Shown: positions 7,683 to 45,916 of the stretch, piece by piece
How positions within the stretch are numbered: the stretch's first letter is position 1
Layout: each line of letters begins with the position of its first letter
From: Calditrichia bacterium
GTDB taxonomy: Bacteria; Calditrichota; Calditrichia; Calditrichales; J004
Direction of reading: 5' to 3'
Assembly: GCA_020635035.1 (NCBI GenBank)
Contig: JACKAO010000006.1
Span: 57,583 to 121,582, forward strand
DNA length: 64,000 nt
Made by a program: the position numbers and the translations under genes
Notes under the pieces: model-generated
Told to the model about the DNA's origin: nothing
What the model saw: only the letters and a program-made list of their open reading frames with translations
Databases searched by the model: none

Positions 7683-7691
7683 CTGTTATAA

Positions 7692-8972: not shown

Positions 8973-11147
8973 ATGGAAATGAATGTAGTCTTTGCCGTTG
9001 TCAGCGCAATACTGGCGTTGCTTTTTGCTTTTTTCCGTTCATCTCAGATCAAAAAGAAAGATGCCGGAACAGATGATATGAAAAAAATTTCCAGTCATAT
9101 CCGTGAAGGTGCCATGGCTTTTTTGAAAGCTGAGTACAGGGTTCTGGCAATTTTTGTTGTTGTTGTTGCAGTGTTATTGGGTGTTTCTGCAGACCCGGTT
9201 AATTCATCTGCTTTAGTTGCATTGTCGTTTATAACAGGGGCTTTATGCTCAGGCTTAGCCGGTTTCTTTGGGATGCGCGTTGCTACAAGTGCCAATGTAC
9301 GCACAACTAATGCTGCACGCACAGGTTTAGGACAAGCGCTTGAAGTTGCTTTTGCCGGTGGTTCTGTTATGGGTTTGGTTGTTGTTGGGTTAGGTGTTTT
9401 AGGGCTGGGGAGCCTTTTTCTGTTTTATGAAAGTTTTTTTGGTGCAGACAATATGGAGCAAATCCTGACAGTTCTGACAGGATTTTCATTTGGTGCTTCT
9501 TCTATTGCGTTGTTTGCCCGTGTAGGCGGCGGTATTTACACAAAAGCTGCTGATGTCGGCGCTGACCTTGTTGGAAAAGTTGAAGCCGGAATACCTGAAG
9601 ATCATCCTTTAAATCCTGCAACAATTGCTGATAATGTTGGTGACAACGTAGGTGATGTTGCCGGAATGGGTGCTGACCTTTTTGAATCCTATGTTGGATC
9701 TATTATTGGAACAATGGTTCTTGGGGCAGCATTTATGAGTATCCCTGCTTTTCAACAGGCTGGAAATTTAAATGCAATACTTTTACCGCTTGTTCTTGCC
9801 GGAACGGGTATTTTAACATCAATTCTGGGAACTTTTTTTGTAAGAGTGAAAGAAGGCGGTAATCCACAGAAAGCACTCAATATCGGAGAATTTGGATCAT
9901 CCATAGTGATGGTGATTGCATCTTATTTTATCATTGACAAGATGCTGCCGGCGAATTGGACTTTTAATGATATTACTTATTCATCTACTGGTGTGTTTTA
10001 TGCAACCTTGTTTGGCTTGGCTGCAGGATTAATAATTGGTATGGTCACCGAGTATTATACAGGAACCGGTAAGAAACCAGTCAGGGAAATTGCTGAACAA
10101 TCCGTAACAGGATCTGCAACAAATATTATAGCCGGTCTTGGTGTTGGTATGGTTTCCACAGCAATACCAATTATTGTGATTGCCGTTTCAATTATCGCAG
10201 CTTATGAATTTGCCGGATTGTATGGAATTGCAATTGCTGCTGTTGGAATGCTCTCAAATACGGGTATTCAGCTTGCTGTAGATGCTTATGGTCCAATTTC
10301 GGATAACGCCGGTGGTATTGCAGAAATGTCTGAATTGCCTTCAGAAGTCCGTAAAAGAACGGATAAACTGGATGCTGTTGGTAACACAACCGCAGCAATT
10401 GGAAAAGGGTTTGCCATTGGATCAGCTGCTCTGACAGCATTAGCATTGTTCGCTGCATTTATCACTGCTTACAACCATTCACATAAAGGTAATATTTTAG
10501 ATTCCATCAATATTACAGATCCAAAAGTGATGGCTGCACTTTTTGTAGGCGCAATGATGCCTTTCCTGTTTTCTTCATTTGCTATGAAAGCAGTTGGCCG
10601 CGCGGCCATGTCGATGATTCAGGAAGTTCGGAGACAATTTTCAACAATTCCGGAACTGAAAGCGGCTCTCTCGATGATGCAGAAAAATAATGGTGTGGAT
10701 TTTGAAAAGTGGTCTTCCGACGATCAGAAAACTTTTGAAAATGCGCATGGGAAAGCTGAATACGGAAAATGCGTGGAAATCTCAACAGCTGCGTCTATTA
10801 AAGAAATGGTAATTCCCGGTTTGCTGGCTGTTATTGTTCCTGTACTTTTCGGATTTATTGGTGGCGCTTCCATGCTCGGTGGTCTGTTGGCAGGTGTAAC
10901 AGCGTCTGGTGTATTAATGGCTTTGTTCCAGTCAAATGCAGGTGGAGCTTGGGATAATGCTAAAAAAATGATTGAAGAAGGAATCACCATCGATAATCAA
11001 AAATACGGCAAAGGATCTGATCCGCATAAAGCTGCAGTCGTTGGTGATACAGTTGGTGATCCGTTTAAAGATACAGCCGGTCCGTCGCTTAATATTTTGA
11101 TAAAATTAATGTCGGTTGTTGCTTTGGTTATTGCTCCGTTGATATAA
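8973..11147 (+). CDS. hppA: membrane-bound (H+/Na+)-translocating pyrophosphatase, K+-dependent subtype
   Basis: 724 aa, polytopic. DNVGDNVGD and [11 protein letters not shown] motifs. [10 protein letters not shown] has Ala rather than Lys at the K+-dependence position. Confidence 0.9.
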
Positions 11148-11185
11148 AAAAGAATATTGAAAACTTTGTTAATTAACTAAATCCT

Positions 11186-11211
11186 GTTCTGTCTGTCAGC
11201 CCGGGCAGAAC
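11186..11211 (+). promoter_or_regulatory. 5'-UTR hairpin upstream of rpsF (possible S6:S18 autoregulatory leader)
   Basis: About 10-bp imperfect stem GTTCTGTCTG / CGGGCAGAAC around a 6-nt loop. No T-run. Ends 13 nt before the AAGGAGG Shine-Dalgarno of rpsF. Confidence 0.25.
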
Positions 11212-11232
11212 CAAATGTCCAAAGGAGGAAAC

Positions 11233-11658
11233 ATGGCTATCTACGAAACAGTAGTTATACTGGATAGTTTACTGCCGCCGAAAGAAATCGATGATTTTGT
11301 TGAACGCTGCTCATCGGTTATTGCTGAACATGGCGGTAAAGTCAGAACCATTGAAAAATGGGGAAAAAGACGCCTTGCCTATGAAATCCAGAAGAAACAA
11401 TATGGATTTTATTTTTCTGTAGAATTTGAAGGCGAAGGTGAAATTCCTGCAATTTTGCAGAGTGAATACAATTTTAATGATAATGTTTTGCGCTATCTGA
11501 CATATCGTTATGATAAACATAAATTGCAGTCAATGTCTTCACAGAAGCCATCTGCTAAACCGGTTGAAGTAAGAAGCTCTGCACCGGCAGAGGCAGAACC
11601 TGTGAAAAAAGTTGAAAAAGCTTCAGAAGTTGATGAAAAAAACGAAGAGGAGGCCTAA
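11233..11658 (+). CDS. rpsF: 30S ribosomal protein S6 (with Lys/Glu/Ala-rich C-terminal extension)
   Basis: The MAIYETVVILD N-terminus is canonical. The ATG at 11233 is preceded by AAGGAGG, so it is preferred over the listed 11215. Confidence 0.9.
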   Translation: MAIYETVVILDSLLPPKEIDDFVERCSSVIAEHGGKVRTIEKWGKRRLAYEIQKKQYGFYFSVEFEGEGEIPAILQSEYNFNDNVLRYLTYRYDKHKLQSMSSQKPSAKPVEVRSSAPAEAEPVKKVEKASEVDEKNEEEA

Positions 11659-11886
11659 ATGTATAAGCAAAAAAGACGCAGAAATTGCCCCTTTGCCCAG
11701 GCAGGGATCGTTTATATCGACTTTAAAGACGAAAAATTATTAAAAAAGTATCTCACTGAACAAGGCAAAATAATACCACGGCATACTTCCGGCGCATCTG
11801 CTAAAATGCAGAGACAGCTGGCGCGTGCTGTAAAACGTGCACGTCACCTGGCATTATTACCTTATTCAGCTGACTTTACCCGTTAA
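11659..11886 (+). CDS. rpsR: 30S ribosomal protein S18
   Basis: 75 aa. IDFKD...L..Y..E.GKI.PR..TG...K.QR.L..A.KRAR motif. Starts directly after the rpsF stop. Confidence 0.9.
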
Positions 11887-11909
11887 TCTTTAAACAAAAG
11901 GAAAAGAGC

Positions 11910-12353
11910 ATGAAAGTTTTATTGCGCGAAGATTATAAAGGTTTGGGTGAAGCTGGAGCTGTTGTAAAAGTAAAAGATGGTTTTGCCCGAAACTTTTTGA
12001 TTCCACAGGGAATTGCTTATATCGCTACAGATCAGAACCAAAAGCGATATGAAAATGATTTGAAACAACAAAGCTGGCGCACAGAACGTGATAAACATAA
12101 AGCGGAAGAGCTGGCCAAAACACTGGAAAATGTTTCTTGTACAATTTCAGTTCAGGTTGGTGAAGAAGATAAGCTTTTTGGTTCTGTAACTGCTCAGAAT
12201 ATTGCCGACAATTTAGCTGAACAAGGCTATAAAATTGATCGTCGTAAAATTCAGCTTGATGAACCCATTAAATCACTTGGCATTTACTCTGTAGGAATTA
12301 AATTACACCAGGATGTTGACGCTTCAGTCAAAGTCTGGGTTGTTAAAGAGTAG
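11910..12353 (+). CDS. rplI: 50S ribosomal protein L9
   Basis: MKVLLRED...G..G.VV.VKDGFARNFLIPQG N-terminus is canonical L9. Confidence 0.9.
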   Translation: MKVLLREDYKGLGEAGAVVKVKDGFARNFLIPQGIAYIATDQNQKRYENDLKQQSWRTERDKHKAEELAKTLENVSCTISVQVGEEDKLFGSVTAQNIADNLAEQGYKIDRRKIQLDEPIKSLGIYSVGIKLHQDVDASVKVWVVKE

Positions 12354-33370: not shown

Positions 33371-33442
<72 letters not shown>

Positions 33443-33583
33443 CTAATGCTTTTTGTTTCTCAAAGTTAGAATTTTGTATATTTTGTTTGTGTATTATTGA
33501 CGATTATCACAGAATAAAATCACTCTTGTGACTTAATTGCTGTTCAATGCCTAATTACTTCGAATTATAACCAGGGAGGAGAT

Positions 33584-34414
33584 ATGAGATTATCTCGGAT
33601 AATATTTCTCACTGCATTTATTTTGTCTGCAATTAATATAAATGCGCAAATCTATCAACAAGTACCAAATGCCGGGGCAATCAACTGGCAGGATCAAATT
33701 CTAAATAGCACAGGTATAGGTGCACCTGACCCCAAAGTACCATTTGCTGCTCAAAGAGCTGGTGCAATCCGTGCTGCTAAACTTGACGCATTACGGCAAT
33801 TGCTGGAAACGGTAAAAGGGATGAATCTTACATCTGAAACGACTGTTAGAAATGCTATGATTGAAAATGATGTTATTCAAACCCGTGTCGAAGGCGTGGT
33901 AAAGAATTTTAAAATGACAGACACACGTTATCTAAGCGATGGGAGTGTTGAAGTTGATGTTGAAATTCCCCTGAGCGGTATCCTTCTTAACGAACTTTTA
34001 CCACAGCAGGTTGGAGGAAAGGTTCCTGGCAGCATTAATTATAATGTTAGCCCGCAACCAAACTTTAGTAATACTATTTTTACAGGTCTGATAATTGATG
34101 CCCGCGGACTGGGTTTACGACCGGCTATGGCACCGAAAGTACTTGATGAAAATGGCAATGAAGTTTATGGAACCGGTTATGTCAGCAGAGATTATGCTGT
34201 GCAGATAGGTGTTGTCGGCTATGAGAAAGATATGAGCCGGGCAGCTAAAGACGACCGTGTAAAAGACAATCCGGTTGTTGTCAAAGCTCTGCGTGTGGAA
34301 GGAACAAACCAGACAGATGTTGTTATTTCCAACAATGATGCTGCAAATATCTCAGCAGCTGGCAAAAACCTTAATTTTATGGAACAATGTAAAGTAATGT
34401 TCATCTTAGACTAA
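33584..34414 (+). CDS. exported LPP20-like domain protein with unknown C-terminal domain
   Basis: Signal peptide (..ININAQ). QRAGAIRAAKLDALRQLLETVKG resembles the LPP20 lipoprotein family. C-terminal half (TGLIIDARGLGLRPAMAPKVLDENGNEVYG...) not recognised. Confidence 0.5.
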   Translation: MRLSRIIFLTAFILSAININAQIYQQVPNAGAINWQDQILNSTGIGAPDPKVPFAAQRAGAIRAAKLDALRQLLETVKGMNLTSETTVRNAMIENDVIQTRVEGVVKNFKMTDTRYLSDGSVEVDVEIPLSGILLNELLPQQVGGKVPGSINYNVSPQPNFSNTIFTGLIIDARGLGLRPAMAPKVLDENGNEVYGTGYVSRDYAVQIGVVGYEKDMSRAAKDDRVKDNPVVVKALRVEGTNQTDVVISNNDAANISAAGKNLNFMEQCKVMFILD

Positions 34415-34429
34415 GCGGAGAAATTGAAA

Positions 34430-35593
34430 ATGAAAGCATATTTTTACAAAATCGCTATTCTGCTTTTTACTGCTATCTTTGTTTTTCAATGTGCTGGACC
34501 CAAAGAAAGAAAAGCGGAATCAGTTCTTGATACGCCTGAATATCATTATAACCAGGGTATTAAATTTCTGAATAATAATGACCTAACAAATGCAGAACGG
34601 GAATTTAATCTTGCTAAAAGTTTAAAAGATGATTTTGCTCCTGCTTATGAAGGTCTCGCACTTGTGGCAATTGAAAAAGGCGATCTCAAAAAAGCCGAAA
34701 AACTAATAGATGAATCTATGAGTCGCGATGGTGACTGGACCCCGGCACAGGTTGCAAAAGGCAGATTATTACTTGCAAAAGAACAGTATGAAGATGCGGT
34801 CGAAGAATTTGAAGATGCCATTGATGATGTCAATGATTCAAAAACTGTTAAAGACAAAAAAACAGTAAAAAAAGACGCTTACTATTGGATGGGTGTTGCT
34901 TATAAAAGATGGGAAAAATATATAGATGCACAGACATCTTTCCAGAAAATTCTTGAGATTGACAACACTGATACCAGAGCTATGGTTGCTATTAAGGAAT
35001 TAGCGGAATATCAGGCGGCGGTTGCCGGTCAGTCTCCAGAGCTTCGTAAAATTGCCGCCCAAAAAGAAATTACCCGCGCGGATGTTGCTGTTTTATTTGT
35101 TACGGAGATGCCCCTGGACAAAATTTTCAGAAAATCTTCTGCAACACAAAGCACTAAGTTTGCAGCGCCAAGCCAGGGAATTATGGGTAAACAGGAAGCA
35201 AAACCAGCCAATCCTGATTGGTGGGCAACCGATGTAAAAGAAGATCATTGGGCGAAATCATTTATTGATAAAGCGCTGGAAAAAGGTATTATTGAAAAAT
35301 ATCCCGATGGAACATTCCGGCCGGATGAAAAAGTAAATCGTGCCGAATTTGCAATGCTTATTCAGCATTTCCTTGTAAAAGCATTTGATGATCGTTCTAT
35401 CGAAACTAAACATTTTGGTGATACAAGCCCCTTTAGTGATGTACTTAATACTTCACCGGTATTTAATGCTATAATGGTCGTAACAACGCGTAATATTATG
35501 CCGGCCATTGTAGATGGCACTTTTCGTCCATTACAGGTTGTTTCGGGTGCTGAATCTTTAAATGTAATTCGTAACCTGAAGGCTCAATTCTAA
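34430..35593 (+). CDS. lipoprotein with TPR repeats and C-terminal SLH (S-layer homology) domains
   Basis: Signal peptide ending in Cys (VFQC). TPR-like helices (YHYNQGIKFLNNND..AEREF). SLH-like segments (ITRADVAVLFV; HWAKSFIDKALEKGIIEKYPDGTFRPDEKVNRAEFAMLI; FSDV...DGTFRP). ATG 34430 preferred over TTG 34424 because GGAG lies 9 nt upstream. Confidence 0.6.
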   Translation: MKAYFYKIAILLFTAIFVFQCAGPKERKAESVLDTPEYHYNQGIKFLNNNDLTNAEREFNLAKSLKDDFAPAYEGLALVAIEKGDLKKAEKLIDESMSRDGDWTPAQVAKGRLLLAKEQYEDAVEEFEDAIDDVNDSKTVKDKKTVKKDAYYWMGVAYKRWEKYIDAQTSFQKILEIDNTDTRAMVAIKELAEYQAAVAGQSPELRKIAAQKEITRADVAVLFVTEMPLDKIFRKSSATQSTKFAAPSQGIMGKQEAKPANPDWWATDVKEDHWAKSFIDKALEKGIIEKYPDGTFRPDEKVNRAEFAMLIQHFLVKAFDDRSIETKHFGDTSPFSDVLNTSPVFNAIMVVTTRNIMPAIVDGTFRPLQVVSGAESLNVIRNLKAQF

Positions 35594-35619
35594 ATCCTTA
35601 TAATTCAAAGACACTAATT

Positions 35620-36813
35620 ATGAAAAATCTACTTTTGAAATTTTTAAGCATACTGCTGATTTCAAATTTTGTTTTTGCTCAGGATGCACAAACCGTAACT
35701 GCCACGGGTTTTGGAGCAATTCTTGCCGGTGACATGGTAAAAGCCCGCGAAGATGCTGTTAATGACGCGCTGCGAAAAGCGGTGGAACAGGTCGTTGGTC
35801 TGATGATTGATTCACGGACAGTAACAGAAAACTTTATGCTTCTTGAAGATAAAATATATACGAAAACAGCAGGTTATGTGCAGAGTTTTAAAGAGATATC
35901 ATCCACTACGCGGCCGGATAATTCACTTGAAGTAACTGTTGAAGCCATTGTAAAAACAGGTGATCTTAAAAATGACCTGGATGGAATTCTGACAACATTA
36001 AGACGAGAAGGTATGCCACGTACAATGGTACTGATCAAAGAAGAAAATATCGGTCAAAACCAGTGGCATATTACATCAGATCTAAATACGGCTGAAACAG
36101 CTATCATGAACACAATGATGGAGTTTGGTTTTCCTTTTGTGGATGCAGCAACTTCCCGAAATAATATAGAAAAAGATGCAGTGATGGCCGCTATTAATGG
36201 TGATGCAAATGCAGCAGCAGCCATTGCTAAAAGAAGCGGAGCTGAAATCCTTATTGTTGGAAATGCCAAGTCCACAGTTACCCAACTCGCTGTGATGAAA
36301 TCTTCCGGGATGAAAACCTGTTCAGCGAATATGAACCTAAGGGTTATTCGGGCAGATGATGCTGTTGTTATTGCAACATCTTCTGCAAGGGGTGTTGCTG
36401 CCCATATTGATGAGCTGACAGGTAGCAGCCAGGCTCTGGAAAAGGCATCCAAACAAGCAGCAACAGAGCTTAAAGATAAGATTATTGAGAAATTCCGTGA
36501 AAACCAGTATGCACATCGTCAGGTGCAACTACAGGTTTTAAATATCTCGAGCTTTTCGCAATTGAGCACGATTAAAAACAGCCTGCCTTACTACATTCGT
36601 GGTGTAAAAAACATTTATCAGCGGAATTTTGAAAATGGCAGTGCTTTGTTTGATATAGAAATTTCTCAGACAGCTGAAACGGTTGCCAGTGAACTCTCTT
36701 CTAAAACTATTGAAGGAATCAATCTTGAGATTATCGGAGTTACACAAAACAAAGTGACTGCCAGGATAGCTCAGGAGAGCCAACAGACAAGTGAAGAAGG
36801 AGGCGTAAATTGA
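35620..36813 (+). CDS. exported protein with FlgT-N/LPP20-like N-terminal domain
   Basis: Signal peptide (FVFAQ). VTATGFGAI...AREDAVNDALRKAVEQVVG resembles FlgT N-terminal / LPP20-type domains. The middle domain (PRTMVLIKEEN...) resembles the CsgG/LpoB-like fold. Pattern-level recognition only. Confidence 0.4.
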   Translation: MKNLLLKFLSILLISNFVFAQDAQTVTATGFGAILAGDMVKAREDAVNDALRKAVEQVVGLMIDSRTVTENFMLLEDKIYTKTAGYVQSFKEISSTTRPDNSLEVTVEAIVKTGDLKNDLDGILTTLRREGMPRTMVLIKEENIGQNQWHITSDLNTAETAIMNTMMEFGFPFVDAATSRNNIEKDAVMAAINGDANAAAAIAKRSGAEILIVGNAKSTVTQLAVMKSSGMKTCSANMNLRVIRADDAVVIATSSARGVAAHIDELTGSSQALEKASKQAATELKDKIIEKFRENQYAHRQVQLQVLNISSFSQLSTIKNSLPYYIRGVKNIYQRNFENGSALFDIEISQTAETVASELSSKTIEGINLEIIGVTQNKVTARIAQESQQTSEEGGVN

Positions 36814-37721
36814 AAAACATTACTTTATGCAAAGCGGTGCTGATCAGCCTGATTTTTGCTTCAGTTTTGTTTAGTCAGGATTTAGCCAATCTAAAAAAAC
36901 GTGTAGCAGTTGTAAATTTTGAAGATGCGGCAGGATATGGCCATAATATTGGAAATGGTTTATCAGACATGCTGATTACAGCACTTGTGGAAAGCAAAAA
37001 ATTTATAGTAATTGAACGCGGTGAACTGGATCAGGTTATGCAGGAACAAGGCTTAGGTATGACGGGTGCGGTAACACCGCAATCGGCAGCAAAAGTTGGT
37101 CAGCTTCTTGGAGTGGAATTGATAATTACCGGTAGTGTGAGTGAGTTTGGCACTAAGCAGGATAAGATCGGCGGGGCTTTAAGTAACCTGAGCGGTTTTA
37201 ACCTGGGTGTTTCAACAGAGTCAGCGCGCTCCGTTGTAGATATCAGGCTTGTTAATACATCTACCGGAGAAATTATTACAGCGAAAAAAGCAGAAGGCGA
37301 AGAAAGTTCAAAGAGCCTGGATAATATTGGTGTTGACGGTATCAATTTTAATAATTCTTCAACCTGGGATAAAACTATTCTTGGAAAAGCTGCCCGGCAG
37401 TCTGTTGAAAAATGTGTTGATATTATCACAGATGGCATGGCTGATATTACCTGGCAGGGCAAGGTTATTAAAGCAAATTCTGATGGTACTTTGTTTATGA
37501 AACCCGGATCTGCGGCAGGAGTAAGCAGTGGCATGACGTTTTGGGTTTACAGACCGGGAGAAGAGCTTATTGATCCTGATACAGGAATTTCCCTCGGTTC
37601 TGAAGAAATGAAAATTGGTAAAATTGAAGTAGTAAGCGATGTTGCCGGGGGAAAGGCCTGCAAAGCAATTGTAAAAAGCGGCAGCAATTTTGAAACAGGT
37701 GACCTTGTACGAATAAAATAA
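36810..37721 (+). CDS. CsgG/HfaB-family (curli-secretion-channel-like) protein
   Basis: KKRVAVVNFED....G.GLSDMLITALVESKKF.VIERGELDQVMQEQ...GAV...SAAKVGQLLGV..IITGSV.EFG is the CsgG-family core. TTG start overlaps the upstream stop (TTGA), with GAAGGAGG 7 nt upstream. Confidence 0.7.
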   Translation: MKNITLCKAVLISLIFASVLFSQDLANLKKRVAVVNFEDAAGYGHNIGNGLSDMLITALVESKKFIVIERGELDQVMQEQGLGMTGAVTPQSAAKVGQLLGVELIITGSVSEFGTKQDKIGGALSNLSGFNLGVSTESARSVVDIRLVNTSTGEIITAKKAEGEESSKSLDNIGVDGINFNNSSTWDKTILGKAARQSVEKCVDIITDGMADITWQGKVIKANSDGTLFMKPGSAAGVSSGMTFWVYRPGEELIDPDTGISLGSEEMKIGKIEVVSDVAGGKACKAIVKSGSNFETGDLVRIK

Positions 37722-37731
37722 TGGGGACGAA

Positions 37732-38484
37732 ATGAAATTCAGAATAGTCAGTTTTGTTACAGGTCTTTTATTGATAAGTATTGCAGTAAGTGCTTATAAT
37801 TTCTGGCAGGTTCCGGCAGTTGCCAAAATTACTTTTCCGTTGGGCAGCGTTATGGTGCTTCCAAAAGGCGAAAAGAAAATGCAGAAAGCCGGTTTTAATC
37901 AGGATCTTTTTCCGGGAGACAAAGTCCGTACAGAGAAACAGGCCCGCTGCGAAATAAAATATAATGACGGAAGTATTGTACGTATAGATCAGCAAAGTAT
38001 TTACACCATTGAAAAAGCGGATATTAAGAAAGATAAAAAAGAAGTTGAATCAAGCCTATCTTTGGGCCGCTTGTGGGCAAATATCAAAAAATTAGCCAGT
38101 TCATCGGATAACTGGCTGTTAAGGGGGCCATCTGCGGTTGTTGCTGTGCGTGGAACAGTATACCGAATGGATGCTATGGAAGATAAATCATCCAAAGTGT
38201 TGGTTTATGAAGGAACTGTAAACGTTGGGCCGCCTTCCTGGGCTCCTGGAAGCGGGGCACAGGGTCAGAATCAGGGCGGGCCACCACGACAGGTACAGGG
38301 TCCGACACAGGTTAAAGGGCCAAGCCAGGTGACATTAGAACAATGGGTTGAAATTGTAAAAGCGCAGCAGCAGATTGTTGTCCAACCCGATGGAAGCTTC
38401 CAGAAATCAGATTTTGATCTGGTCGCAGACGCGCAAAGCAGCTGGGTTAAATGGAACATGGAAAGAGATAAGCTGATAAAGTAA
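37732..38484 (+). CDS. FecR-domain protein with Gly/Pro/Gln-rich segment
   Basis: N-terminal TM. GD.V.T......EI.Y.DGS.VR...QS.. and VAVRGTVY FecR-type motifs. Low-complexity GPPSWAPGSGAQGQNQGGPPRQVQGPTQVKGPSQV. Confidence 0.6.
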   Translation: MKFRIVSFVTGLLLISIAVSAYNFWQVPAVAKITFPLGSVMVLPKGEKKMQKAGFNQDLFPGDKVRTEKQARCEIKYNDGSIVRIDQQSIYTIEKADIKKDKKEVESSLSLGRLWANIKKLASSSDNWLLRGPSAVVAVRGTVYRMDAMEDKSSKVLVYEGTVNVGPPSWAPGSGAQGQNQGGPPRQVQGPTQVKGPSQVTLEQWVEIVKAQQQIVVQPDGSFQKSDFDLVADAQSSWVKWNMERDKLIK

Positions 38485-38511
38485 ATCACTACTGTACTTT
38501 GATGTTTTTAA

Positions 38512-38550
38512 AGGCTGTTCAAATTTTTGGGCAGCCTTTTTTTGTTTTTT
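38512..38550 (+). terminator. rho-independent terminator after FecR-like gene
   Basis: 11-bp stem AGGCTGTTCAA / TTGGGCAGCCT (two G:U pairs), 4-nt loop, then TTTTTTTGTTTTTT. Confidence 0.75.
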
Positions 38551-38672
38551 GCAGATCGAATAGATTAAGTGAATAATTTTAATGTGTTAATTCGTTATGC
38601 AAAATAAGTAGCATCAATTTTTTATATTACTGTAAATTAGATTACAACCAATCATATAATCGAAGAATAGCG

Positions 38673-39758
38673 ATGAATCAGAACTTATTTGAAGTCGATA
38701 AACTTCTTGATGGTGCTTCCGGGATAGGAACATCTATTGCCCAGGAAACACGTGAATTAAGCGAGTTTGTTAAAGATAAATCCAATGATCTGATTGACAG
38801 AGTTTCAGCTTACGAAGATATTATCAGCCTGGAAATTGGGGACACATCACTTTCACGAGCGAGAAACATTGAACGTGAAGCAAATATGCGGCAGATTTAT
38901 TTAAAATTTGAAGGGGGCAATCCCACAGGTACTCAAAAAGACCGGATTGCGTTTGCCCAATGCCTGGATGCACTGCGACGCGGTTATGAGACTGTAACCC
39001 TGGCAACATGTGGAAATTATGGAGCAGCCATGGCTTTAGCTGCTGAACTGGCAGGATTAAAATGTATTATCTGTATTCCTGAGAGTTATCATACCAAACG
39101 TATAAATGAAATGAGTAAAATGGGTTCGGAGATTGAGCGTGTTTCCGGAAGTTATGAAGACTCTGTCGATTATTCGATTAAAATGGCCTGGGATAAGGAG
39201 TATTACGATGCGAATCCGGGTGGTGTTAATACTTCCATACAGTTGAAAGCATATGCAGAAATAGCAATGGAGATCTATGACATTCTCAGGGATGCCCCAA
39301 AGATTGTAGCCGCTCCTGTATCAAACGGAACATTGCTGGCGGGCGTGTTCAGGGGATTTGTAAGCTTGTATAAACGCGGGAAAACATCGCGTCTTCCTAA
39401 GATGATTGCTGCTTCATCTACAAATAAAAACCCGATTATTGTATCCTTTAAAAAAGGTTTGAAGAGCTGCAGGGATCTTAATCCTACAGGTATCAAAGAA
39501 ACAAAAATTAATGAACCTTTGATTAACTGGCATTCATTTGATGGCGACGAAGCTTTATGGGCTTTATATGATTCTGATGGCGCGTCCAGATGGGTTAGTG
39601 ATAAAAAACTAATGGATTACTCAAAAATTTTAAAGGACCGGGAAGGACTGAATGTTTTGCCTGCATCTACTGCCGGACTCATTGGTTTGCTTGAAATGCA
39701 TAAAGAAAAGCCGTTTGAAGGGGATCGTTATGTTACTATTCTTACCGGGAGAAAATAA
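38673..39758 (+). CDS. fold-type-II PLP-dependent enzyme (threonine-synthase / cysteine-synthase-like)
   Basis: PLP-lysine motif FEGGNPTGTQKDRIA, ATCGNYGAAMA and PVSNGTLLAG glycine loop. 361 aa. Reaction not assignable. Confidence 0.7.
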   Translation: MNQNLFEVDKLLDGASGIGTSIAQETRELSEFVKDKSNDLIDRVSAYEDIISLEIGDTSLSRARNIEREANMRQIYLKFEGGNPTGTQKDRIAFAQCLDALRRGYETVTLATCGNYGAAMALAAELAGLKCIICIPESYHTKRINEMSKMGSEIERVSGSYEDSVDYSIKMAWDKEYYDANPGGVNTSIQLKAYAEIAMEIYDILRDAPKIVAAPVSNGTLLAGVFRGFVSLYKRGKTSRLPKMIAASSTNKNPIIVSFKKGLKSCRDLNPTGIKETKINEPLINWHSFDGDEALWALYDSDGASRWVSDKKLMDYSKILKDREGLNVLPASTAGLIGLLEMHKEKPFEGDRYVTILTGRK

Positions 39759-40825
39759 TGAAGAAAAATAATTGTATTGTATACTGCCAGGGTGCTTTTA
39801 ATACACCAAACGGGAAGACCGCTCACGGTTTGGTTCGTTTTACGGAACGGTATAATGTTGTTGCAGTGATCGATTCTGTTTATTCAGGAAAAGATGCCGG
39901 CCATGTCTTAGACAATCGCCCAAATACTATTCCGATTGTAAAGGACCTGAGAGAAGCTGTTCGTATTGCAGATGAGAAAAAATTAAAACCTGATTATCTG
40001 GTAATGGGAATTGCACCTGATGGCGGAAGACTTTCTGCGGAAGCAAAAGATGACATTCGTGAAGCCATTTCTATGGGATTAAATATTGACAGCGGACTGC
40101 ATGATTTCTTGAGTGATGACCCGGAAATGGTCGCATTGGCAAACGAAAAAGGCTGCACCATTCGTGATATCCGTAAGACCCCTGGAAGAGATAAACTGCA
40201 TTTTTTCAGTGGTAAGATTGAAGAAGTAGACTGCTTAAAAATCGCTGTACTCGGCACAGATTCTGCAATAGGGAAAAGGACTACTGCATGGATAATAATC
40301 CATGGTTTGCGTAAAGCCGGTTATAAAGGTGAACTTGTCGGTACCGGACAAACTGCCTGGATGCAGGGTGCGAAATATTCGCTGGTGATGGATTCCTTAA
40401 TAAATGATTTTGTTTCAGGGGAAATAGAGCATGCAGTGCATGAAGCATGGCAAAATGAAAACCCGGATGTTATTGTTATTGAAGGGCAGGGTAGTTTAAT
40501 GAATCCCGCTTATCCGGGCGGATTTGAAATTCTTGCTGCCGGCCGGCCGGATTTTGTGATTCTCCAGCATGCACCCAAACGCTTGGAATATGATGGTTTT
40601 CCAGGATATAAATTGCATTCCCTTCCGCAGCAAATACAGGCGATTGAAGTTATTTCGGGGGTTAAAGTGAAAGCCATTACTATTAATCATGAAAATATGG
40701 ATGCTGCAGAAATAAAAATAGCCTGTAAAGATATTCTGCAAGAAACAGGATTACCTGCATTTGATGTTCTTGCTGATGGACCGGAACAGCTTGTAAAGCT
40801 GATTATAAGTGAATTGAAATCATAA
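39758..40825 (+). CDS. DUF1611-family protein (P-loop-like; DgcN-type N-acetyltransferase family)
   Basis: GTDSAIGKRTT and IEGQGSLMNPAYPG motifs typical of DUF1611. 355 aa. Start overlaps the upstream stop (TAATG). Confidence 0.7.
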   Translation: MKKNNCIVYCQGAFNTPNGKTAHGLVRFTERYNVVAVIDSVYSGKDAGHVLDNRPNTIPIVKDLREAVRIADEKKLKPDYLVMGIAPDGGRLSAEAKDDIREAISMGLNIDSGLHDFLSDDPEMVALANEKGCTIRDIRKTPGRDKLHFFSGKIEEVDCLKIAVLGTDSAIGKRTTAWIIIHGLRKAGYKGELVGTGQTAWMQGAKYSLVMDSLINDFVSGEIEHAVHEAWQNENPDVIVIEGQGSLMNPAYPGGFEILAAGRPDFVILQHAPKRLEYDGFPGYKLHSLPQQIQAIEVISGVKVKAITINHENMDAAEIKIACKDILQETGLPAFDVLADGPEQLVKLIISELKS

Positions 40826-40854
40826 ACGTTAAAATCTTATAGGATTTAACTGAA

Positions 40855-43194
40855 ATGGATGAAATTAAAAATCTTCAGGATTTTGTAAAAATTAAACAAT
40901 TAAAAGTTGGTCCGTTAATTATTGAAAAGAAGCGCCTGAAAGCGCCCTATGAAGTAACTCATTTCGATGGAAAAACAGATTCAACAAATTTTATTTACAG
41001 TTATGATGAAGCAGTCTTTGATTCAGCAAAGCCTGAAAATGTAAATCTTGCTTCGATGATGGCGGCACAGGTTGCTTTAAATTATGGTCTGTTTTGCGAA
41101 GAAATAGTTTTTGACGGATTATATGACGATGCAGATCGTCGTTTTATAATCGATAAAATGGAAAATACAAGCCGTGAGATATACATAAACAAACTGATTA
41201 TGCCCAATCTTTTCCTAAAGCCGGAATTCAGTAATCTCACCGTTGAAAAACAGCCGAAATACACTGCAAGTAAAATAAAATTTATCAATACCCGGTATGA
41301 TAAGCTTCAGGTTAACTGGAAATATGCAGTAAAAAATCATGATGCATATGCCATTCTCAGCAGTGGTGGAAAAGACAGTCTTTTGACCTATGGAATAATG
41401 AAAGAAATCGGAAAAGATGTACATCCTGTTTTTGTAAACGAAGCCGGCAGGCACTGGTTTACAGCACTTAATTCTTTCCGTCATTATCAGTCAGTGGAGC
41501 CGAATACAGCGCGTGTATGGTGCAACAGTGACCGTGTATTTTCATGGATGCTGCGCCAGTTTTCGTTCATCAGGGATGATTTTAATAAGATTCGTGCGGA
41601 CGACTACCCAATCCGGCTATGGACGGTCGCTGTGTTTTTGTTTGGGGTATTGCCAATTGTTCATAAGCGCGGGATTGGCAGGATTCTTATCGGGGATGAA
41701 TATGACAGCACCCAAAAGGTGACACATGAAGGACTGACTCACTATAACGGGTTGTTTGATCAGAGTAAATATTTCGATAATGCGCTTACCCGTTATTATA
41801 TGAAAAAAGCATGGAATATCTTCCAGTTCTCTATATTGCGCAGTCTTTCAGAAATGCTGATTCTTAAGATTCTTGTAAAACGTTATCCCGATCTTCAGCA
41901 GCACCAGGTATCCTGCCATGCGGCTCATGAAAAGGATGGCCGGATCTACCCATGCGGGAATTGCGAGAAGTGCCGGCGCATAGTTGGCATGCTTATGGCC
42001 ATGGATGAAGATCCAGCCAGGTGCGGATATACAGAAACCAAAGTTGCAGCGGCCTTATCCAATCTTGAGCAGAATAAAGTTAAACAAATCGGTTCGGATG
42101 CTGCACATTTATATCATTTGTTATTAAGTAAAAATTTAATTGCTGAAAACGAACACACTAAAAGAATAGCCGGTGAACATAATTATATCCTTAAGCTGCG
42201 ATTTGATAATGAACGCAGCATGATGAGTGATTTGCCGGAAGACATTCGCAGTAATCTTTTCAGGATTTATCTGCAGTATGCAGATGGTGCAGTGAATCTG
42301 GTCAATCGTAAATGGCAGGATTTTGATGTTCTGAACAGTAAGTTGCTGGAAAAAGATTATCCGTTTGAAGCAAAACGTATTCAGCAAAACATTTCCGCAT
42401 CTGAGAACACGGACACCGAATATCTGTGGGAAAACATGACCTGGCAAGAGATCGAAGATCGTTTAAGTCTGGTTGATACGGCAATCCTTCCATGCGGTGC
42501 TATTGAACAGCATGGACCGCATTTACCTGTTGATATCGACTATTTTGATGCAAGAATCCTGGCAGCTAAAGTCGCTGAAGCCTGCAGTGATCCTAAACCA
42601 TTTGTATTGCCGGCTGTTCCGTTTGGCGTTTCCTATCATCATGAAGATTTTAAAGGAACACTGAGTGTTACCAATGATGCATTATCGCGATTTATTTATG
42701 ACATTGGGATGAGCCTGGCAAAAAATGGGATTAAGAAGCTGATCATTCTTAATGGACATGGCGATAATGCTCCAACATTAAATTATGCGGCGCAAATGAT
42801 TAACCGGGATTCACAAATATTTGTTTGTGTTGAAACGGGGGAAACGAGTGATAAAGACTTGTATGAACTTGTGGAAACGCATAACGATATTCATGCAGGC
42901 GAAATTGAAACCAGCACGACTCTAGCAATTCGTCCGGATAAAGTTAAAATGGAAAAAGCTGTTAATGAGACGCTCACCTTTGGCAGCAGTTATCTTGATT
43001 TTACTTCATCGCGCGGGGTTTCGTGGTATATCAGGACAAAAAAAATATCCCAGTCGGGGATCATGGGTGACCCAACAAAAGCCAGTGCCGAAAAAGGGCG
43101 CAAAATGTGGGAAATTATGATTGCCCATCTGGTTAAATTTGTCGAAGAAATTAAAAAAAGCAACCTGGAAGATTTATATCAAAAAAGATACTAA
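40855..43194 (+). CDS. fusion protein: N-terminal PP-loop ATP pyrophosphatase (adenine-nucleotide alpha-hydrolase) with Cys cluster + C-terminal creatininase-fold amidohydrolase
   Basis: SGGKDS PP-loop at nt 41362-41379 (aa 170-175). Cys354...Cys367-x2-Cys370-x2-Cys373 (CGNCEKCRR) at nt 41914-41973. Creatininase motifs from about aa 528: LPCGAIEQHGPHLP, VPFGVSYHH, LNGHGDN, HAGEIETS. Confidence 0.7.
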   Translation: MDEIKNLQDFVKIKQLKVGPLIIEKKRLKAPYEVTHFDGKTDSTNFIYSYDEAVFDSAKPENVNLASMMAAQVALNYGLFCEEIVFDGLYDDADRRFIIDKMENTSREIYINKLIMPNLFLKPEFSNLTVEKQPKYTASKIKFINTRYDKLQVNWKYAVKNHDAYAILSSGGKDSLLTYGIMKEIGKDVHPVFVNEAGRHWFTALNSFRHYQSVEPNTARVWCNSDRVFSWMLRQFSFIRDDFNKIRADDYPIRLWTVAVFLFGVLPIVHKRGIGRILIGDEYDSTQKVTHEGLTHYNGLFDQSKYFDNALTRYYMKKAWNIFQFSILRSLSEMLILKILVKRYPDLQQHQVSCHAAHEKDGRIYPCGNCEKCRRIVGMLMAMDEDPARCGYTETKVAAALSNLEQNKVKQIGSDAAHLYHLLLSKNLIAENEHTKRIAGEHNYILKLRFDNERSMMSDLPEDIRSNLFRIYLQYADGAVNLVNRKWQDFDVLNSKLLEKDYPFEAKRIQQNISASENTDTEYLWENMTWQEIEDRLSLVDTAILPCGAIEQHGPHLPVDIDYFDARILAAKVAEACSDPKPFVLPAVPFGVSYHHEDFKGTLSVTNDALSRFIYDIGMSLAKNGIKKLIILNGHGDNAPTLNYAAQMINRDSQIFVCVETGETSDKDLYELVETHNDIHAGEIETSTTLAIRPDKVKMEKAVNETLTFGSSYLDFTSSRGVSWYIRTKKISQSGIMGDPTKASAEKGRKMWEIMIAHLVKFVEEIKKSNLEDLYQKRY

Positions 43195-43196
43195 AA

Positions 43197-44273
43197 ATGA
43201 AAATCACACATCTTGAATGCTGGGCTCAGGATTTAACAATCAATGAACCATATACTATAGCTTATGAAACAGTCTCACATTGCACGAATGTATTTTTGCG
43301 GGCAGAAACAGATTCCGGGATATCAGGGTGGGGATGCGCCGCGCCGGATGCCGTAATTACAGGGGAAACAGGCGGTTCAGTAGTGCAGGCGTACAACGAT
43401 TTTATTTTTCCTTTATTAAAGGATTTTGATCCTTTCCGCTATGCTTCAGCCGCAGAGCAAATAAAAAAACAACTTGTTAAGCAGCCGTCTGCTTGTGCTA
43501 TGGCAGATATGCTTCTTTACGATTTAATGGCGAGAAAGGCAGGCGAACCTCTATATAAATTTTTAGGTGGTTTCCGGGATTTTATTCCTACCAGTATTAC
43601 TATCGGCATCCTGCCAGTTGAAGAAACACTGAAAAAGGCGAAACAATTTATAAAAAGCGGTTTCTCCATTCTAAAAATAAAAGGTGGCTGTAATGTTGAA
43701 GATGATATCCGTAAATTAAATCTTGTGCGTCAGAAAATGGGTCCGCAAATAGAGATACGTTTTGATGCAAACCAGGGATATAATCTTGAGCAGGCAATTG
43801 AATTTATCAGGGAAACAAAAGATGCGGAAATTGAGTTGCTTGAGCAACCCACCGATAAAATGAATGAAGAACTGCTTGGTCAGGTTACAAAGAATGTTGA
43901 CATACCGGTGATGGCTGATGAAAGCTTGATGAATCTGAAAGATGTATTTAGATTAACAGCCAATAATTTTACAGATATGATCAACATTAAGCTGATGAAA
44001 GCCGGGGGCATAACAGAAGCAATGCATATTAATTCTGTTGCAAAAGCTGCTGGTGTCGAATCTATGATTGGCTGCATGGATGAATCGGCGCTGGCTATTT
44101 CGGCAGGACTTCATTTTGCATTATCACGCCCAAATATTTCTTACGCAGATTTGGACGGACATCTTGATTTACAGGATGATCCATTTGCAGGCACGGTTAT
44201 TCTGAAAGAAGGTGTCCTTTATCCTGTGGATGCGAATGGTTTTTCAGGAAAAATAAGAAAGAAATGGTTTTAA
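43197..44273 (+). CDS. enolase-superfamily dipeptide / N-acyl-amino-acid epimerase (L-Ala-D/L-Glu epimerase family)
   Basis: KIKGG (KxK), RFDANQGY, LEQP, PVMADES, NIKLMKAGG and GCMDES motifs of the MLE-subgroup epimerases. Confidence 0.8.
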   Translation: MKITHLECWAQDLTINEPYTIAYETVSHCTNVFLRAETDSGISGWGCAAPDAVITGETGGSVVQAYNDFIFPLLKDFDPFRYASAAEQIKKQLVKQPSACAMADMLLYDLMARKAGEPLYKFLGGFRDFIPTSITIGILPVEETLKKAKQFIKSGFSILKIKGGCNVEDDIRKLNLVRQKMGPQIEIRFDANQGYNLEQAIEFIRETKDAEIELLEQPTDKMNEELLGQVTKNVDIPVMADESLMNLKDVFRLTANNFTDMINIKLMKAGGITEAMHINSVAKAAGVESMIGCMDESALAISAGLHFALSRPNISYADLDGHLDLQDDPFAGTVILKEGVLYPVDANGFSGKIRKKWF

Positions 44274-44280
44274 GAATTTT

Positions 44281-44934
44281 TCAGATTAATTTTTGAAGCT
44301 GTATCTTAACGTCTTGGAAATTTTCTAAGATTAAATTGGCTTGGTTTAAGTATTTTTCAGTTAATGTTGTTTTAACGGCTATAACAAAACAACCGGCTGC
44401 TTTCCCTGCTTTTATACCCAACGGGGCATTTTCAATTACAATACAATCTGCAGGATTCAATAATAATTTTTCTGCACCTTTAGTAAATGGTTCAGGATAT
44501 GGTTTTCCATTTTTTACATCATCGATGGTAACAATTGCTGAAAAATAGTCTTTAAAATAATTTTCTATAACATTGGAGACCCGGTCGCGATTGCCACCAG
44601 TTACAACAGCCATTGGAATATGTTTGTTTTTTAAGAAATCGATCAATTCAAAAAATGAATCATAGAATTGAATTTTTTCAAAAGAATAATAATGTCGGGC
44701 CTTAGCTTCAATGATATCGAGAAGCTCCTTTTCTTTCAGACCGTATGGTTCTCCCAGCATTCTTGCGATAGTGGAAAGACCCTGGCCTTCGAGCTGGAAA
44801 AAACTCTCTTTAGTGAAAGTGATATTTTTTTCTGCAAATGCTTTACTCCAGGCATCATAATGCTGATGCATACTGTCGATTACAACACCATCAAAATCGA
44901 ATAAAACACCTTTATACTTTTTTTCGAAAACCAT
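44281..44934 (-). CDS. HAD-superfamily hydrolase (beta-phosphoglucomutase-like subfamily)
   Basis: LFDFDGVVIDS (motif I DxD), VVTGG and GKPYPEPF motifs. Start moved to the Met at 44934 (MVFEKKYKGVLFDFDG) because the listed extension overlaps the upstream gene. Confidence 0.75.
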   Translation of the reverse strand: MVFEKKYKGVLFDFDGVVIDSMHQHYDAWSKAFAEKNITFTKESFFQLEGQGLSTIARMLGEPYGLKEKELLDIIEAKARHYYSFEKIQFYDSFFELIDFLKNKHIPMAVVTGGNRDRVSNVIENYFKDYFSAIVTIDDVKNGKPYPEPFTKGAEKLLLNPADCIVIENAPLGIKAGKAAGCFVIAVKTTLTEKYLNQANLILENFQDVKIQLQKLI

Positions 44935-44971
44935 TAATAAACCTGAATAAAAATTTCCGGATGAGCAGACC

Positions 44972-45916
44972 TTAGGAATTGTAAACAACAACCTGATCGC
45001 GGCCGTTATTTTTTGCTTCGTAGAGTGCCAGATCTGCATTTTTAATCAGCTCATCAACCTGCTGCACCAAATTGGACGAGCAGATACCGGCACTTATTGT
45101 AATATTGATCTGATCATTTTCATTAATTTTTATAATTGTTTTTCTAATCAGATCACTGATCCTGTTTATAAAAAGCTCCATTTCCTGCTGATTAGCGGTA
45201 AGGGATAAAATTGTAAATTCTTCGCCACCGTACCTGAAGGCAAAATCCAATCCGTCTCTTTGATTGCTAAGCAGAATAGCAGCAACAGTCCGTAAAACAT
45301 GATCACCGGCATCGTGGCCATATGAATCATTTACTTTTTTGAAAAAATCTAAATCCAGAAAGGCCAGGCAGAATAAAACTTGTTTACTATGCCATCTTTC
45401 CCAAAAGCGTTGTATCATTTTGTTAAATGAACGCCTGTTTAATAACTTGGTTAAAGGATCTATCGTTGCTTCGATACGGTATTTTTCATTCTGATCCAAA
45501 AGATCTTCGGTCACTTCGGAGAGTAAATCAAATTTTTTAAAAGGCGTGTTAAGCAAATTATAGCGACGAATAACCTTTTTTAAATTACGTTCGAGCTCAT
45601 TCTTTTCTGCCGGATAATCGAGCATATAGTTAACATGAGCCCTGTTTATAGCATTCCTGATAATGCTTACATTTTGAGTTTGAGAAAGGGCAACACGCTG
45701 ACAAATGATGTTGTATTCCATTAATGAACGCAGAAAATTAATGCCTGATTCATCTTCATCACCAATAATTGCAAAGCCTGCTATTATTTCTGTTGAGAGA
45801 TCATTTTGCATTATTTCTGCAAAAACCCGCCCGGTCAAAACTCGAAAGCCGGCAGCTTCAAGGGTTAAAATCAGAAAATCAGTATCATAGGCTGACTTAT
45901 GAACAATTGCAATCAT
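44972..45916 (-). CDS. GGDEF diguanylate cyclase with degenerate receiver-like N-terminal domain
   Basis: DPLTKLLNRRSF, FLDLDFFKKVNDSYGHDAGD and RYGGEEF active site. The N-terminal ~120 aa have receiver-like spacing but lack the DD pair and the conserved Lys. Confidence 0.8.
   Translation of the reverse strand: MIAIVHKSAYDTDFLILTLEAAGFRVLTGRVFAEIMQNDLSTEIIAGFAIIGDEDESGINFLRSLMEYNIICQRVALSQTQNVSIIRNAINRAHVNYMLDYPAEKNELERNLKKVIRRYNLLNTPFKKFDLLSEVTEDLLDQNEKYRIEATIDPLTKLLNRRSFNKMIQRFWERWHSKQVLFCLAFLDLDFFKKVNDSYGHDAGDHVLRTVAAILLSNQRDGLDFAFRYGGEEFTILSLTANQQEMELFINRISDLIRKTIIKINENDQINITISAGICSSNLVQQVDELIKNADLALYEAKNNGRDQVVVYNS

Follow-up and report, generated by a model that had tools for sequence, protein, structure and literature searches.

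The stretch of DNA analysed here (hereafter the window) comprises 64,000 nucleotides of a Calditrichia bacterium genome (contig JACKAO010000006.1, positions 57,583 to 121,582), and its open reading frame (ORF) listing contains a cassette of four co-directional ORFs on the plus strand, spanning 38673-44273. These ORFs encode a pyridoxal phosphate (PLP) enzyme of 361 aa (38673-39758), a DUF1611 protein of 355 aa (39758-40825), a 779-aa fusion of a PP-loop-like N-terminal domain (hereafter the N-domain) to a creatininase domain (40855-43194) and an epimerase of 358 aa (43197-44273). The first two genes overlap by 1 nt in the sequence TAATG (stop codon TAA at 39756-39758, ATG at 39758-39760), and gaps of 29 and 2 nt separate the DUF1611 gene from the fusion gene and the fusion gene from the epimerase gene, respectively. 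On the 5′ side, the cassette is insulated by an intrinsic terminator (38510-38549, plus strand), which ends an unrelated lipoprotein operon and consists of a 13-bp stem (38510-38539) with 5 GC pairs and a 4-nt loop, followed by the T-run TTTTTGTTTTT. Between the terminator and the first start codon lies an AT-rich intergenic leader of 123 nt (38550-38672, plus strand), presumed to be the promoter region, in which sigma-70-like matches were not above shuffled expectation and an Rfam scan at gathering thresholds, which returned only two tRNAs for the whole window, found no riboswitch or leader RNA. On the 3′ side, a convergent ORF for a HAD-family hydrolase (44281-45039, minus strand; HAD_2, 107 bits) ends 7 nt from the last stop codon of the cassette and marks its boundary. 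The original prediction, made from the letters of the window, had described four same-strand genes with this overlap and these gaps, a strong upstream terminator and a convergent gene 7 nt downstream; the ORFs are exactly as it had them, the terminator was recovered, and all of the motifs that it quoted were found in the translations. Given the terminator, the convergent gene at 7 nt, the unrelated flanks and a leader without an Rfam family, the operon is real and insulated.

The original prediction had made its reading depend on whether the association is conserved in other genomes, and conservation turned out to be stronger than expected. Full-length homologues of the fusion number in the thousands; the top 120, all of them full length, share 60-70% identity and carry no annotation beyond ‘creatininase family’. 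A genome scan with the N-domain found it in at least 569 species genomes; the carriers among the best 80 genomes were nearly all Bacteroidota (Cytophagales, Saprospiraceae, Flavobacteriaceae, Marinilabiliales and Rikenellaceae), together with single Ignavibacteria, Calditrichota and Desulfatiglandaceae genomes. The cassette of the window is closest to the Cytophagales versions (70% identity). Neighbourhoods were counted at 81 non-redundant bacterial loci from different families and phyla, and the complete set of activities, arranged as PLP enzyme, DUF1611 protein, N-domain, creatininase and epimerase, was present at 61 of them, with median junctions of 7, -4, -14 and 0 nt in that order; the loci short of five include contig-end losses as well as genuine absences. 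A single gene encodes both the N-domain and the creatininase at 26 loci; at 53 they are encoded by two neighbouring genes, which often overlap. Fusions of these two domains are still seen at 31-33% identity (P0155 and P0158), and the N-domain also occurs fused to DUF1611 (P0126, 855 aa) and to a class-I methyltransferase (P0125, 825 aa). Clustering of all flanking ORFs revealed nothing conserved beyond the five families: the commonest extra neighbour, a GNAT and CN-hydrolase fusion protein of ~509 aa encoded directly after the epimerase, was found at 12 loci, and no transporter, binding protein or regulator occurred at more than 12 of the 81. Recurrence of one gene order in such varied families and phyla, between unrelated flanks, puts the arrangement far outside what chance would produce. 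The genuine absences are informative about its structure. In Flexithrix there is no adjacent epimerase, and in Muriicola and related Flavobacteriaceae (loci L046, L057, L067 and L069, with the GNAT/CN-hydrolase gene at about 10420-11960) the locus is reduced to the N-domain, creatininase and epimerase, the PLP enzyme and DUF1611 genes being absent nearby. Therefore, the cassette consists of two separable sub-modules, one of the PLP enzyme and the DUF1611 protein and the other of the N-domain, the hydrolase and the epimerase, and this view of five activities in two sub-modules refines the four-gene view of the original prediction.

A variant of the cassette is present at 80 archaeal loci from sediment metagenomes (L086-L165; for example, L095, 4766-11448), whose contigs were assigned to archaea because genes for HisRS, a proteasome alpha-subunit and the ribosomal proteins S17e and L10e lie beside the cassette. 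The N-domains of these loci are standalone proteins that form a divergent clade, and the genes for the PLP enzyme, the DUF1611 protein and the N-domain follow one another in this order on one strand. Converging on them from the opposite strand are genes for a small RimI-like GNAT (52 of 80 loci), a protein of ~450 aa (45 of 80) and the epimerase (37 of 80); beyond these three, nothing was conserved at more than 17 of the 80 loci, and no transporter was found among the annotated recurrent neighbours. The archaeal clade has no creatininase. The ~450-aa protein carries invariant H70-x-x-E73 and H179/H180 residues, and 16 of 19 such proteins matched Peptidase_M14 (best E 6e-6); the representative has no Pfam call, and its HxxE and NLH motifs align to carboxypeptidase M in a PDB match that lies below threshold (E 1.4). 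On the strength of these motifs, we read the creatininase as having been replaced by a putative M14-like carboxypeptidase, that is, as a case of non-orthologous displacement. This substitution would place the hydrolysis at an amide beside a free C-terminal carboxylate. Thus, the five families are genetically coupled across Bacteroidota and a few other bacterial phyla, with a variant of the coupling in archaea.

The large fusion had originally been described as a PP-loop ATP pyrophosphatase joined to a creatininase-fold amidohydrolase. Its creatininase half was readily confirmed by profile searches; its PP-loop half was silent in curated profiles and was recovered instead by fold and motifs. 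The N-domain (40855-42369, plus strand; aa 1-505), which we place in a QueC/MurL-like family of PP-loop ATP pyrophosphatases, is made up of a family-specific N-terminal subdomain (aa 1-150), the PP-loop core and a C-terminal helical part. It had no match above threshold in Pfam, NCBIfam or PDB-sequence searches, and with a family profile the PP-loop matches, in which SGGKDS aligned to MJ0690 and TtuA, stayed below threshold. As the curated profiles were silent, a fold search was required. The AlphaFold2 (AF2) model of the domain was confident, with a predicted local distance difference test (pLDDT) value of 82.6 and a predicted template modelling score (pTM) of 0.84, and its best Foldseek matches in the PDB were the QueC structures 2pg3 and 3bl5 (E 1.5e-4 to 5e-3, TM(target) 0.66-0.72), with further matches to QatC, Cap9, MJ0690, YcfA, TtuA and LarE. 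The PP-loop SSGGKDS (41359-41379, plus strand; aa 169-175), the predicted site of the ATP alpha/beta-phosphates, is invariant in 20 orthologues and is kept as SGGKE/DS in 13 of 15 relatives at 23-38% identity (P0146 and P0212 deviate). A four-Cys motif, C354-x12-C367-x2-C370-x2-C373 (41914-41973, plus strand), is a predicted QueC-type zinc site and is invariant in close orthologues as well as in the relatives at 23-38% identity. The Pfam QueC model PF06508 scored 12-14 bits against a gathering threshold of 22 and covered only the C-terminal Cys motif (aa 349-375). The MurL model NF041275 matched 12 of 12 family members (best E 3e-7) over ~85 residues including the Cys motif; the N-domain of the window itself reached 16 bits where the cut-off demands 700, in a partial match (profile positions 250-334 of 447, aa 295-376 of the protein), and therefore it is not a MurL orthologue. 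The family is small, with 401 clusters at 50% identity among 1.8 billion representatives. Judging from the predicted fold, we consider the N-domain to be a narrow, previously undescribed QueC/MurL-like PP-loop family.

Comparison with the two named relatives is instructive. QueC-family enzymes work as carboxylate-amine ligases, as described in the Cap9 and QatC papers, and a 2026 survey of the family (PMC13329287) makes no mention of the N-domain family. The N-domain has QueC, Cap9 and QatC as its best structural matches and shares with them the SGGxDS PP-loop and the four-Cys zinc motif, and by analogy we propose for it their chemistry, namely carboxylate adenylation followed by amide formation. 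In contrast to QueC, it is twice as large, as it possesses the extra N-terminal subdomain and C-terminal helices, and it has neither queuosine nor defence partners beside the cassette and no PADLOC match. MurL has been described as having no known conserved domains and as catalysing an ATP/Mg-dependent, AMP-forming and unidirectional epimerisation of the C-terminal residue of a peptide (PMC5808125, PMC8788868), and it has been proposed to adenylate the C-terminal alpha-carboxylate to make the inversion unidirectional (PMC8788868). The N-domain resembles MurL in its distant homology, which includes the Cys motif, and in a possible logic of ligation followed by inversion; it differs in being found in other taxa, in having no MurD2 or UDP-sugar context and in being accompanied by a separate enolase-type epimerase and a hydrolase.

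The two domains of the fusion are connected by a flexible linker (42370-42411, plus strand; aa 506-519), which is the split point in 53 of 79 loci. Its pLDDT is below 50 in both AF2 models, and the model of the full-length fusion (pTM 0.65) shows no confident or fixed interface between the N-domain and the creatininase domain, so that no channel or interface can be claimed. A disordered linker, as modelled, is consistent with interchangeable fused and split forms. The creatininase-family domain itself (42412-43194, plus strand; aa 520-779), a metal-dependent amidohydrolase, matched PF02633 at aa 526-763 with 231 bits against a threshold of 31, and its motifs EQHGPHLP..D, NGHGDN and HAGEIETS align with the PDB creatininases 3lub, 1q3k and 1j2t. 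Although the domain shares the Pfam family and metal-ligand motifs of creatininase, MftE, ArfB and IolN, it falls below every NCBIfam equivalog cut-off (MftE, 143 of 172 bits; creatininase, 106 of 235; IolN, 85 of 245; ArfB, 23 of 180), the peptidyl-dipeptidase MftE being the highest-scoring one. It also differs from this family in being fused or adjacent to a PP-loop enzyme and in having an M14-like substitute in archaea.

For the remaining three proteins, the original assignments as a PLP enzyme, a DUF1611 protein and an enolase-superfamily dipeptide epimerase agree with the Pfam and NCBIfam calls. The epimerase matched MR_MLE_N with 46 bits and MR_MLE_C with 155 bits (Pfam), and its best PDB match was the L-Ala-D/L-Glu epimerase (AEE) YkfB of Bacillus subtilis (1jpm, E 3e-66, end to end), along with 3jva, 3rit and 2zad. 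All of the 73 bacterial and 34 archaeal orthologues share K160, K162, E216, D241, K265 and D318-x-D320, and D190, which aligns to the DANQG metal-ligand motif of YkfB, is present in all 34 archaeal orthologues. The DxD pair (here D318-L-D320), which we take to bind the N-terminal ammonium of the dipeptide, is present in 1jpm, 3jva, 3rit and 2zad, whereas the N-succinyl-amino-acid racemase 2p88 has E-L-T. As DxD is kept here and is absent in 2p88, the enzyme likely belongs to the dipeptide type, whose substrates have an unblocked N-terminal amine, rather than to the N-acyl type; this argues against a simple Dgc-like N-acetyl route at the epimerisation step. The original prediction had pointed to the specificity residues of such epimerases, and in the comparison with YkfB, Arg24, presumably the binder of the Glu gamma-carboxylate, is replaced by Glu24 in 71 of 73 bacterial and all 34 archaeal orthologues. 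Additional conserved acidic residues are D51, E57, D295 and D324, and the motifs GCMDES and DLDGxxDL are common to the epimerase and 3rit, whose ligand we believe to be L-Arg-D-Lys. From Glu24, the acidic pocket, these presumed roles and the presumed 3rit ligand, we infer that the substrate dipeptide is probably cationic. The AEE equivalogs were far from reached (A_G_epim_Thtga, the best, with 230 bits against 500; PRK15129 with 90 against 343), as was the DgcA model NF042940 (151 bits against a cut-off of 400). By its sequence, the protein can be classed as an AEE-type dipeptide epimerase of the enolase superfamily with a predicted acidic specificity pocket. It keeps the KxK, D, E, D, K and DxD residues of YkfB, YcjG, 3jva, 3rit and TM0006, and it differs from them in having Glu at position 24 and extra invariant acids, in missing the AEE cut-offs and in belonging to a cassette of five activities.

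The PLP enzyme, a fold-type II protein (PALP, 168 bits in Pfam) with its PLP lysine, K89, in the motif TGTQKDR, passed the NCBIfam model PRK06381, which is labelled threonine synthase (419 bits against a cut-off of 266); the archaeal counterpart passed it as well (435 bits). The thrC model TIGR00260 was failed (91 bits against 167), as were PRK05638, PRK08197 and PRK06450, and the closest PDB relatives are threonine synthases (E 3e-28). An invariant signature, comprising TGTQKDR, ATCGNYG, Gln190 and a new Arg143, runs through 66 bacterial and 51 archaeal orthologues. Gln190 stands where ThrC has the Arg of NPYRIEGQK (66 of 66 bacterial and 41 of 51 archaeal orthologues, the remaining archaeal ones being gapped), and we take the Arg of the ThrC motif NPxRxEGQK to be the binder of the substrate phosphate. 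Although the protein resembles ThrC in its fold, its PLP-lysine motif and its overall alignment and passes PRK06381, it differs in the change of Phe to Gln beside the Lys, of STGNTS to TCGNYG and of Arg to Gln190, in the new Arg143 and in the constant linkage of its gene to those of the DUF1611 protein and the N-domain. No thrA or thrB was found among the conserved neighbours at the bacterial and archaeal loci. These sequence features argue for a ThrC-like but distinct family of the PRK06381 type. The altered active-site signature and the constant DUF1611 linkage across the PRK06381 family make the threonine synthase label doubtful; this label is probably an over-annotation and will spread through genomes annotated with PGAP.

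The DUF1611 protein matched DUF1611_N (PF17396, 95 bits) and DUF1611 (PF07755, 213 bits) in Pfam and has a Rossmann-like N-terminal domain and a P-loop C-terminal domain, with a Walker-A-like GTDSAIGKRTT at aa 166-176; its PDB relatives are 2g0t, 2obn and 7xrj. The DgcN model NF041892 gave 153 bits against a cut-off of 480, and on sequence grounds we regard the protein as a paralogue of the D-Glu N-acetyltransferase DgcN. Bacteroidia have been reported as major dgcN carriers in a 2025 metagenome survey (PMC12363236). If looser thresholds were applied, DUF1611 paralogues of the present kind could inflate such counts.

Each of the proteins belongs, by profile or predicted fold, to a known superfamily, and no equivalog cut-off of a characterised enzyme was passed apart from that of the doubtful PRK06381. 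The original prediction had matched the operon to no known pathway, which still stands: the DgcN, DgcA and AEE scores lie far below their cut-offs, and a literature search that included DUF1611, creatininase, dipeptide epimerase and threonine synthase found no paper linking the cassette families. With the association conserved, no characterised pathway claiming the orthologues and both halves of the fusion upheld by profile or by fold, the interpretation as an uncharacterised amino-acid- or peptide-modifying pathway is supported. The substrate is probably an amino acid or a dipeptide rather than a protein or nucleic acid. The reading that we favour, tentatively and with slightly less than an even chance, is a conserved small-molecule pathway of five activities that works on an amino acid or dipeptide, probably a cationic dipeptide, by ATP-driven ligation, epimerisation and hydrolysis. 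The PLP enzyme and the DUF1611 protein would form a feeder or consumer sub-module, by which an unusual amino acid, probably a cationic one, is produced or disposed of: the DUF1611 protein may activate or acylate this amino acid, by analogy with the acetylation of D-Glu by the related DgcN, and the PLP enzyme may carry out a beta/gamma-elimination or replacement. The PP-loop domain would convert ATP to AMP and PPi in adenylating a carboxylate, and would form or activate the amide bond of a dipeptide. The epimerase would then grip the dipeptide through its N-terminal ammonium (by DxD) and through the acidic pocket, and invert the C-alpha of the C-terminal residue, and the metal hydrolase, of the creatininase type or, in archaea, of the M14 type, would cut the amide beside the C-terminal carboxylate. 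The net result would be an effectively irreversible, ATP-driven stereo-inversion of an amino acid via a dipeptide, or alternatively the release of a product containing a D-residue. Such a logic of ligation, epimerisation and hydrolysis parallels that of MurD2 and MurL, in which ligation is followed by an ATP-driven inversion. As for the direction, we lean towards a biosynthetic or housekeeping role rather than nutrient scavenging, because no uptake or regulatory genes are conserved across ~160 loci, the archaeal cassettes have housekeeping neighbours, GNATs recur in both lineages and ATP would be spent.

Several considerations weigh against this proposed pathway. Every step past the family assignments is inferential; the roles given to DxD, to Arg24 and to the ThrC Arg are carried over from the Gerlt-lab and ThrC literature, and the idea of a cationic substrate rests on the charge of the pocket and the presumed 3rit ligand. 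The role suggested for the DUF1611 protein is extrapolated from a paralogue that scores far under the family cut-off. AF2 predicts no fixed interface between the domains of the fusion, and the union of ligase and hydrolase in a single polypeptide would result in a futile cycle unless they are stereospecific. In addition, the nearest characterised relatives of the DUF1611 protein and the epimerase are catabolic, and the carriers are largely sediment and marine organisms that could profit from the salvage of D-amino acids. A more far-reaching form of the proposal, which we consider rather doubtful, is that the cassette is a new and ancient ATP-driven machine for the stereo-inversion of amino acids, common to Bacteria and Archaea, in which the QueC/MurL-like ligase makes a dipeptide, the AEE-type epimerase flips its C-terminal residue (probably cationic and non-proteinogenic) and a stereospecific metallohydrolase frees that residue, the ThrC-like enzyme and the DUF1611 protein supplying the amino acid. 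Its end product would be a D-amino-acid metabolite not yet described, such as a solute consisting of an acetylated D-diamino acid, or a building block of the envelope or of a cofactor.

The serious rival is salvage from D to L in sediments rich in D-amino acids, which we regard as possible but on the unlikely side: dipeptides with D-residues, or D-amino acids, from detritus would be derivatised, epimerised and hydrolysed to L-forms, which the PLP enzyme would then deaminate or dehydrate, so that the cassette would be an elaborated analogue of DgcN/DgcA. The Dgc pathway has been described as racemising irreversibly, as being enriched in sediments and as occurring in Bacteroidia (PMC12363236, PMC10845958), the cassette is carried mostly by Bacteroidota, Calditrichota and Ignavibacteria of marine or sediment habitats and by sediment archaea, and DgcN, DgcA and the YkfB-type AEE, all catabolic, are the nearest named relatives. 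DgcN and DgcA, taken together with a deacetylase, resemble the cassette in their composition (a DUF1611 protein, a racemase or epimerase of the enolase superfamily and an amide hydrolase) and in derivatising, inverting at C-alpha and hydrolysing, with irreversibility through an energy-rich donor; both hydrolase types seen here would suit the final release step. However, a scavenging route fits poorly with the absence of a conserved transporter, binding protein, SusC/D pair or regulator at the ~160 loci and with the position of the archaeal copies among housekeeping genes, it would consume ATP, down to AMP, in addition to any acyl donor, and PLP enzymes that resemble ThrC belong more typically to synthesis. 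The scores of only about one-third of the DgcN and DgcA cut-offs, the retained DxD, which is not that of the N-acetyl-amino-acid racemase needed by the Dgc logic, the acidic rather than Glu-binding pocket, and the additional PP-loop ATPase, creatininase/M14 hydrolase and ThrC-like PLP enzyme all set the cassette apart from that pathway.

The other alternatives fare worse against the same evidence. The original prediction had offered the salvage of peptidoglycan stem peptides as one option. In this reading, the MurL-like and AEE-like enzymes would both act on the Ala-Glu moiety of L-Ala-D-Glu-type substrates, and YkfB is the best PDB match of the epimerase; the presence of the core cassette in archaea, which have no murein, and the loss of the Glu-binding Arg24 to Glu within an acidic pocket disfavour this option, every AEE equivalog score is far under its cut-off, and no amidase, LdcA-like or Mpl-like gene is linked in the bacterial and archaeal neighbourhoods, so that we consider it very unlikely. 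The structural matches to QatC and Cap9, which modify protein N-termini, and the score of MftE, which trims a precursor peptide, as the best equivalog of the hydrolase raise the idea of anti-phage defence or of a maturation similar to that of ribosomally synthesised and post-translationally modified peptides (RiPPs). We give this idea only a slim chance, since the partners are small-molecule enzymes. None of the four proteins had a PADLOC match, on which the defence reading was rejected, and no QatA/B/D, Cap10 or CD-NTase neighbours occur in the window or at the bacterial and archaeal loci. Likewise, neither an ORF for a precursor peptide nor a radical-SAM, TGT-like, nuclease or cyclase partner is present, and the intergenic gaps are too short to hide a peptide gene; with no room for a precursor ORF, the RiPP idea was rejected too. 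That there is no pathway at all, and that an ordinary threonine synthase and a plain DgcN/DgcA pair lie beside a creatininase, would suit the pass of PRK06381 (419 against 266 bits) and the fact that DgcN and DgcA are the sole named matches for two of the proteins. Its probability seems almost negligible in view of five activities co-ordered at most bacterial loci with overlapping junctions and fusions, of the failed TIGR00260 and the low DgcN/DgcA scores, and of the invariant replacement of the ThrC Arg without linked thrA or thrB. A housekeeping ThrC with plain Dgc enzymes was thus rejected on scores, active-site signature and context, and is effectively refuted by the conservation.

We classify the cassette as a variant of stereo-inversion by derivatisation, epimerisation and hydrolysis, or of amino-acid tailoring, that contains an undescribed PP-loop family. 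If the favoured pathway of ATP-driven ligation, epimerisation and hydrolysis is true, it would give a function to an orphan PP-loop family that has no Pfam or NCBIfam model and provide a mechanistic relative for MurL, and DUF1611 would be placed in another biochemical setting besides that of DgcN. A route of five enzymes, leading either to or from an amino-acid derivative of D-configuration, would exist in more than 500 bacterial species as well as in sediment archaea. Likely mis-annotations would be corrected, namely PRK06381 as ‘threonine synthase’, the ‘creatininase’ label and the ‘dgcN’ counts of metagenomes. In addition, the exchange of a creatininase-type for an M14-type hydrolase would be a clean case of non-orthologous displacement which, together with the fusion and fission of genes, is useful for functional inference.

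The surroundings of the cassette in the window bear no relation to it. Upstream, a run of five genes (33584-38484, plus strand) encodes predicted envelope lipoproteins and secretion-related proteins (LPP20-like, SLH+TPR, FlgT_N-like, CsgG-like and FecR-domain proteins) and ends at the strong terminator. SLH domains are unusual in Bacteroidota genomes; their occurrence upstream of a cassette closest to Cytophagales hints at a phylum other than Bacteroidota or at horizontal transfer. The genes downstream encode the HAD-family hydrolase, which is not a conserved neighbour of the cassette in other genomes, a GGDEF protein, CTP synthase, KdsB and PGA_cap. The two tRNA genes of the window (7611-7683 and 33371-33443) have equal Rfam scores and were considered as the boundaries of a repeat or island, but this was ruled out because they are unrelated genes (tRNA-Gln-TTG and tRNA-Gly-CCC). 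The GC skew flips its sign at about 44000-44300, where gene orientation switches from plus to minus, and the cumulative skew peaks at ~44 kb; this could reflect either a transcription-strand bias or a switch resembling that of a replication terminus. Finally, the ORF of the GGDEF diguanylate cyclase (44972-45916, minus strand) and that of the HAD-family hydrolase overlap by 68 nt as called (44972-45039), and the start codon of the latter is probably further downstream than called.

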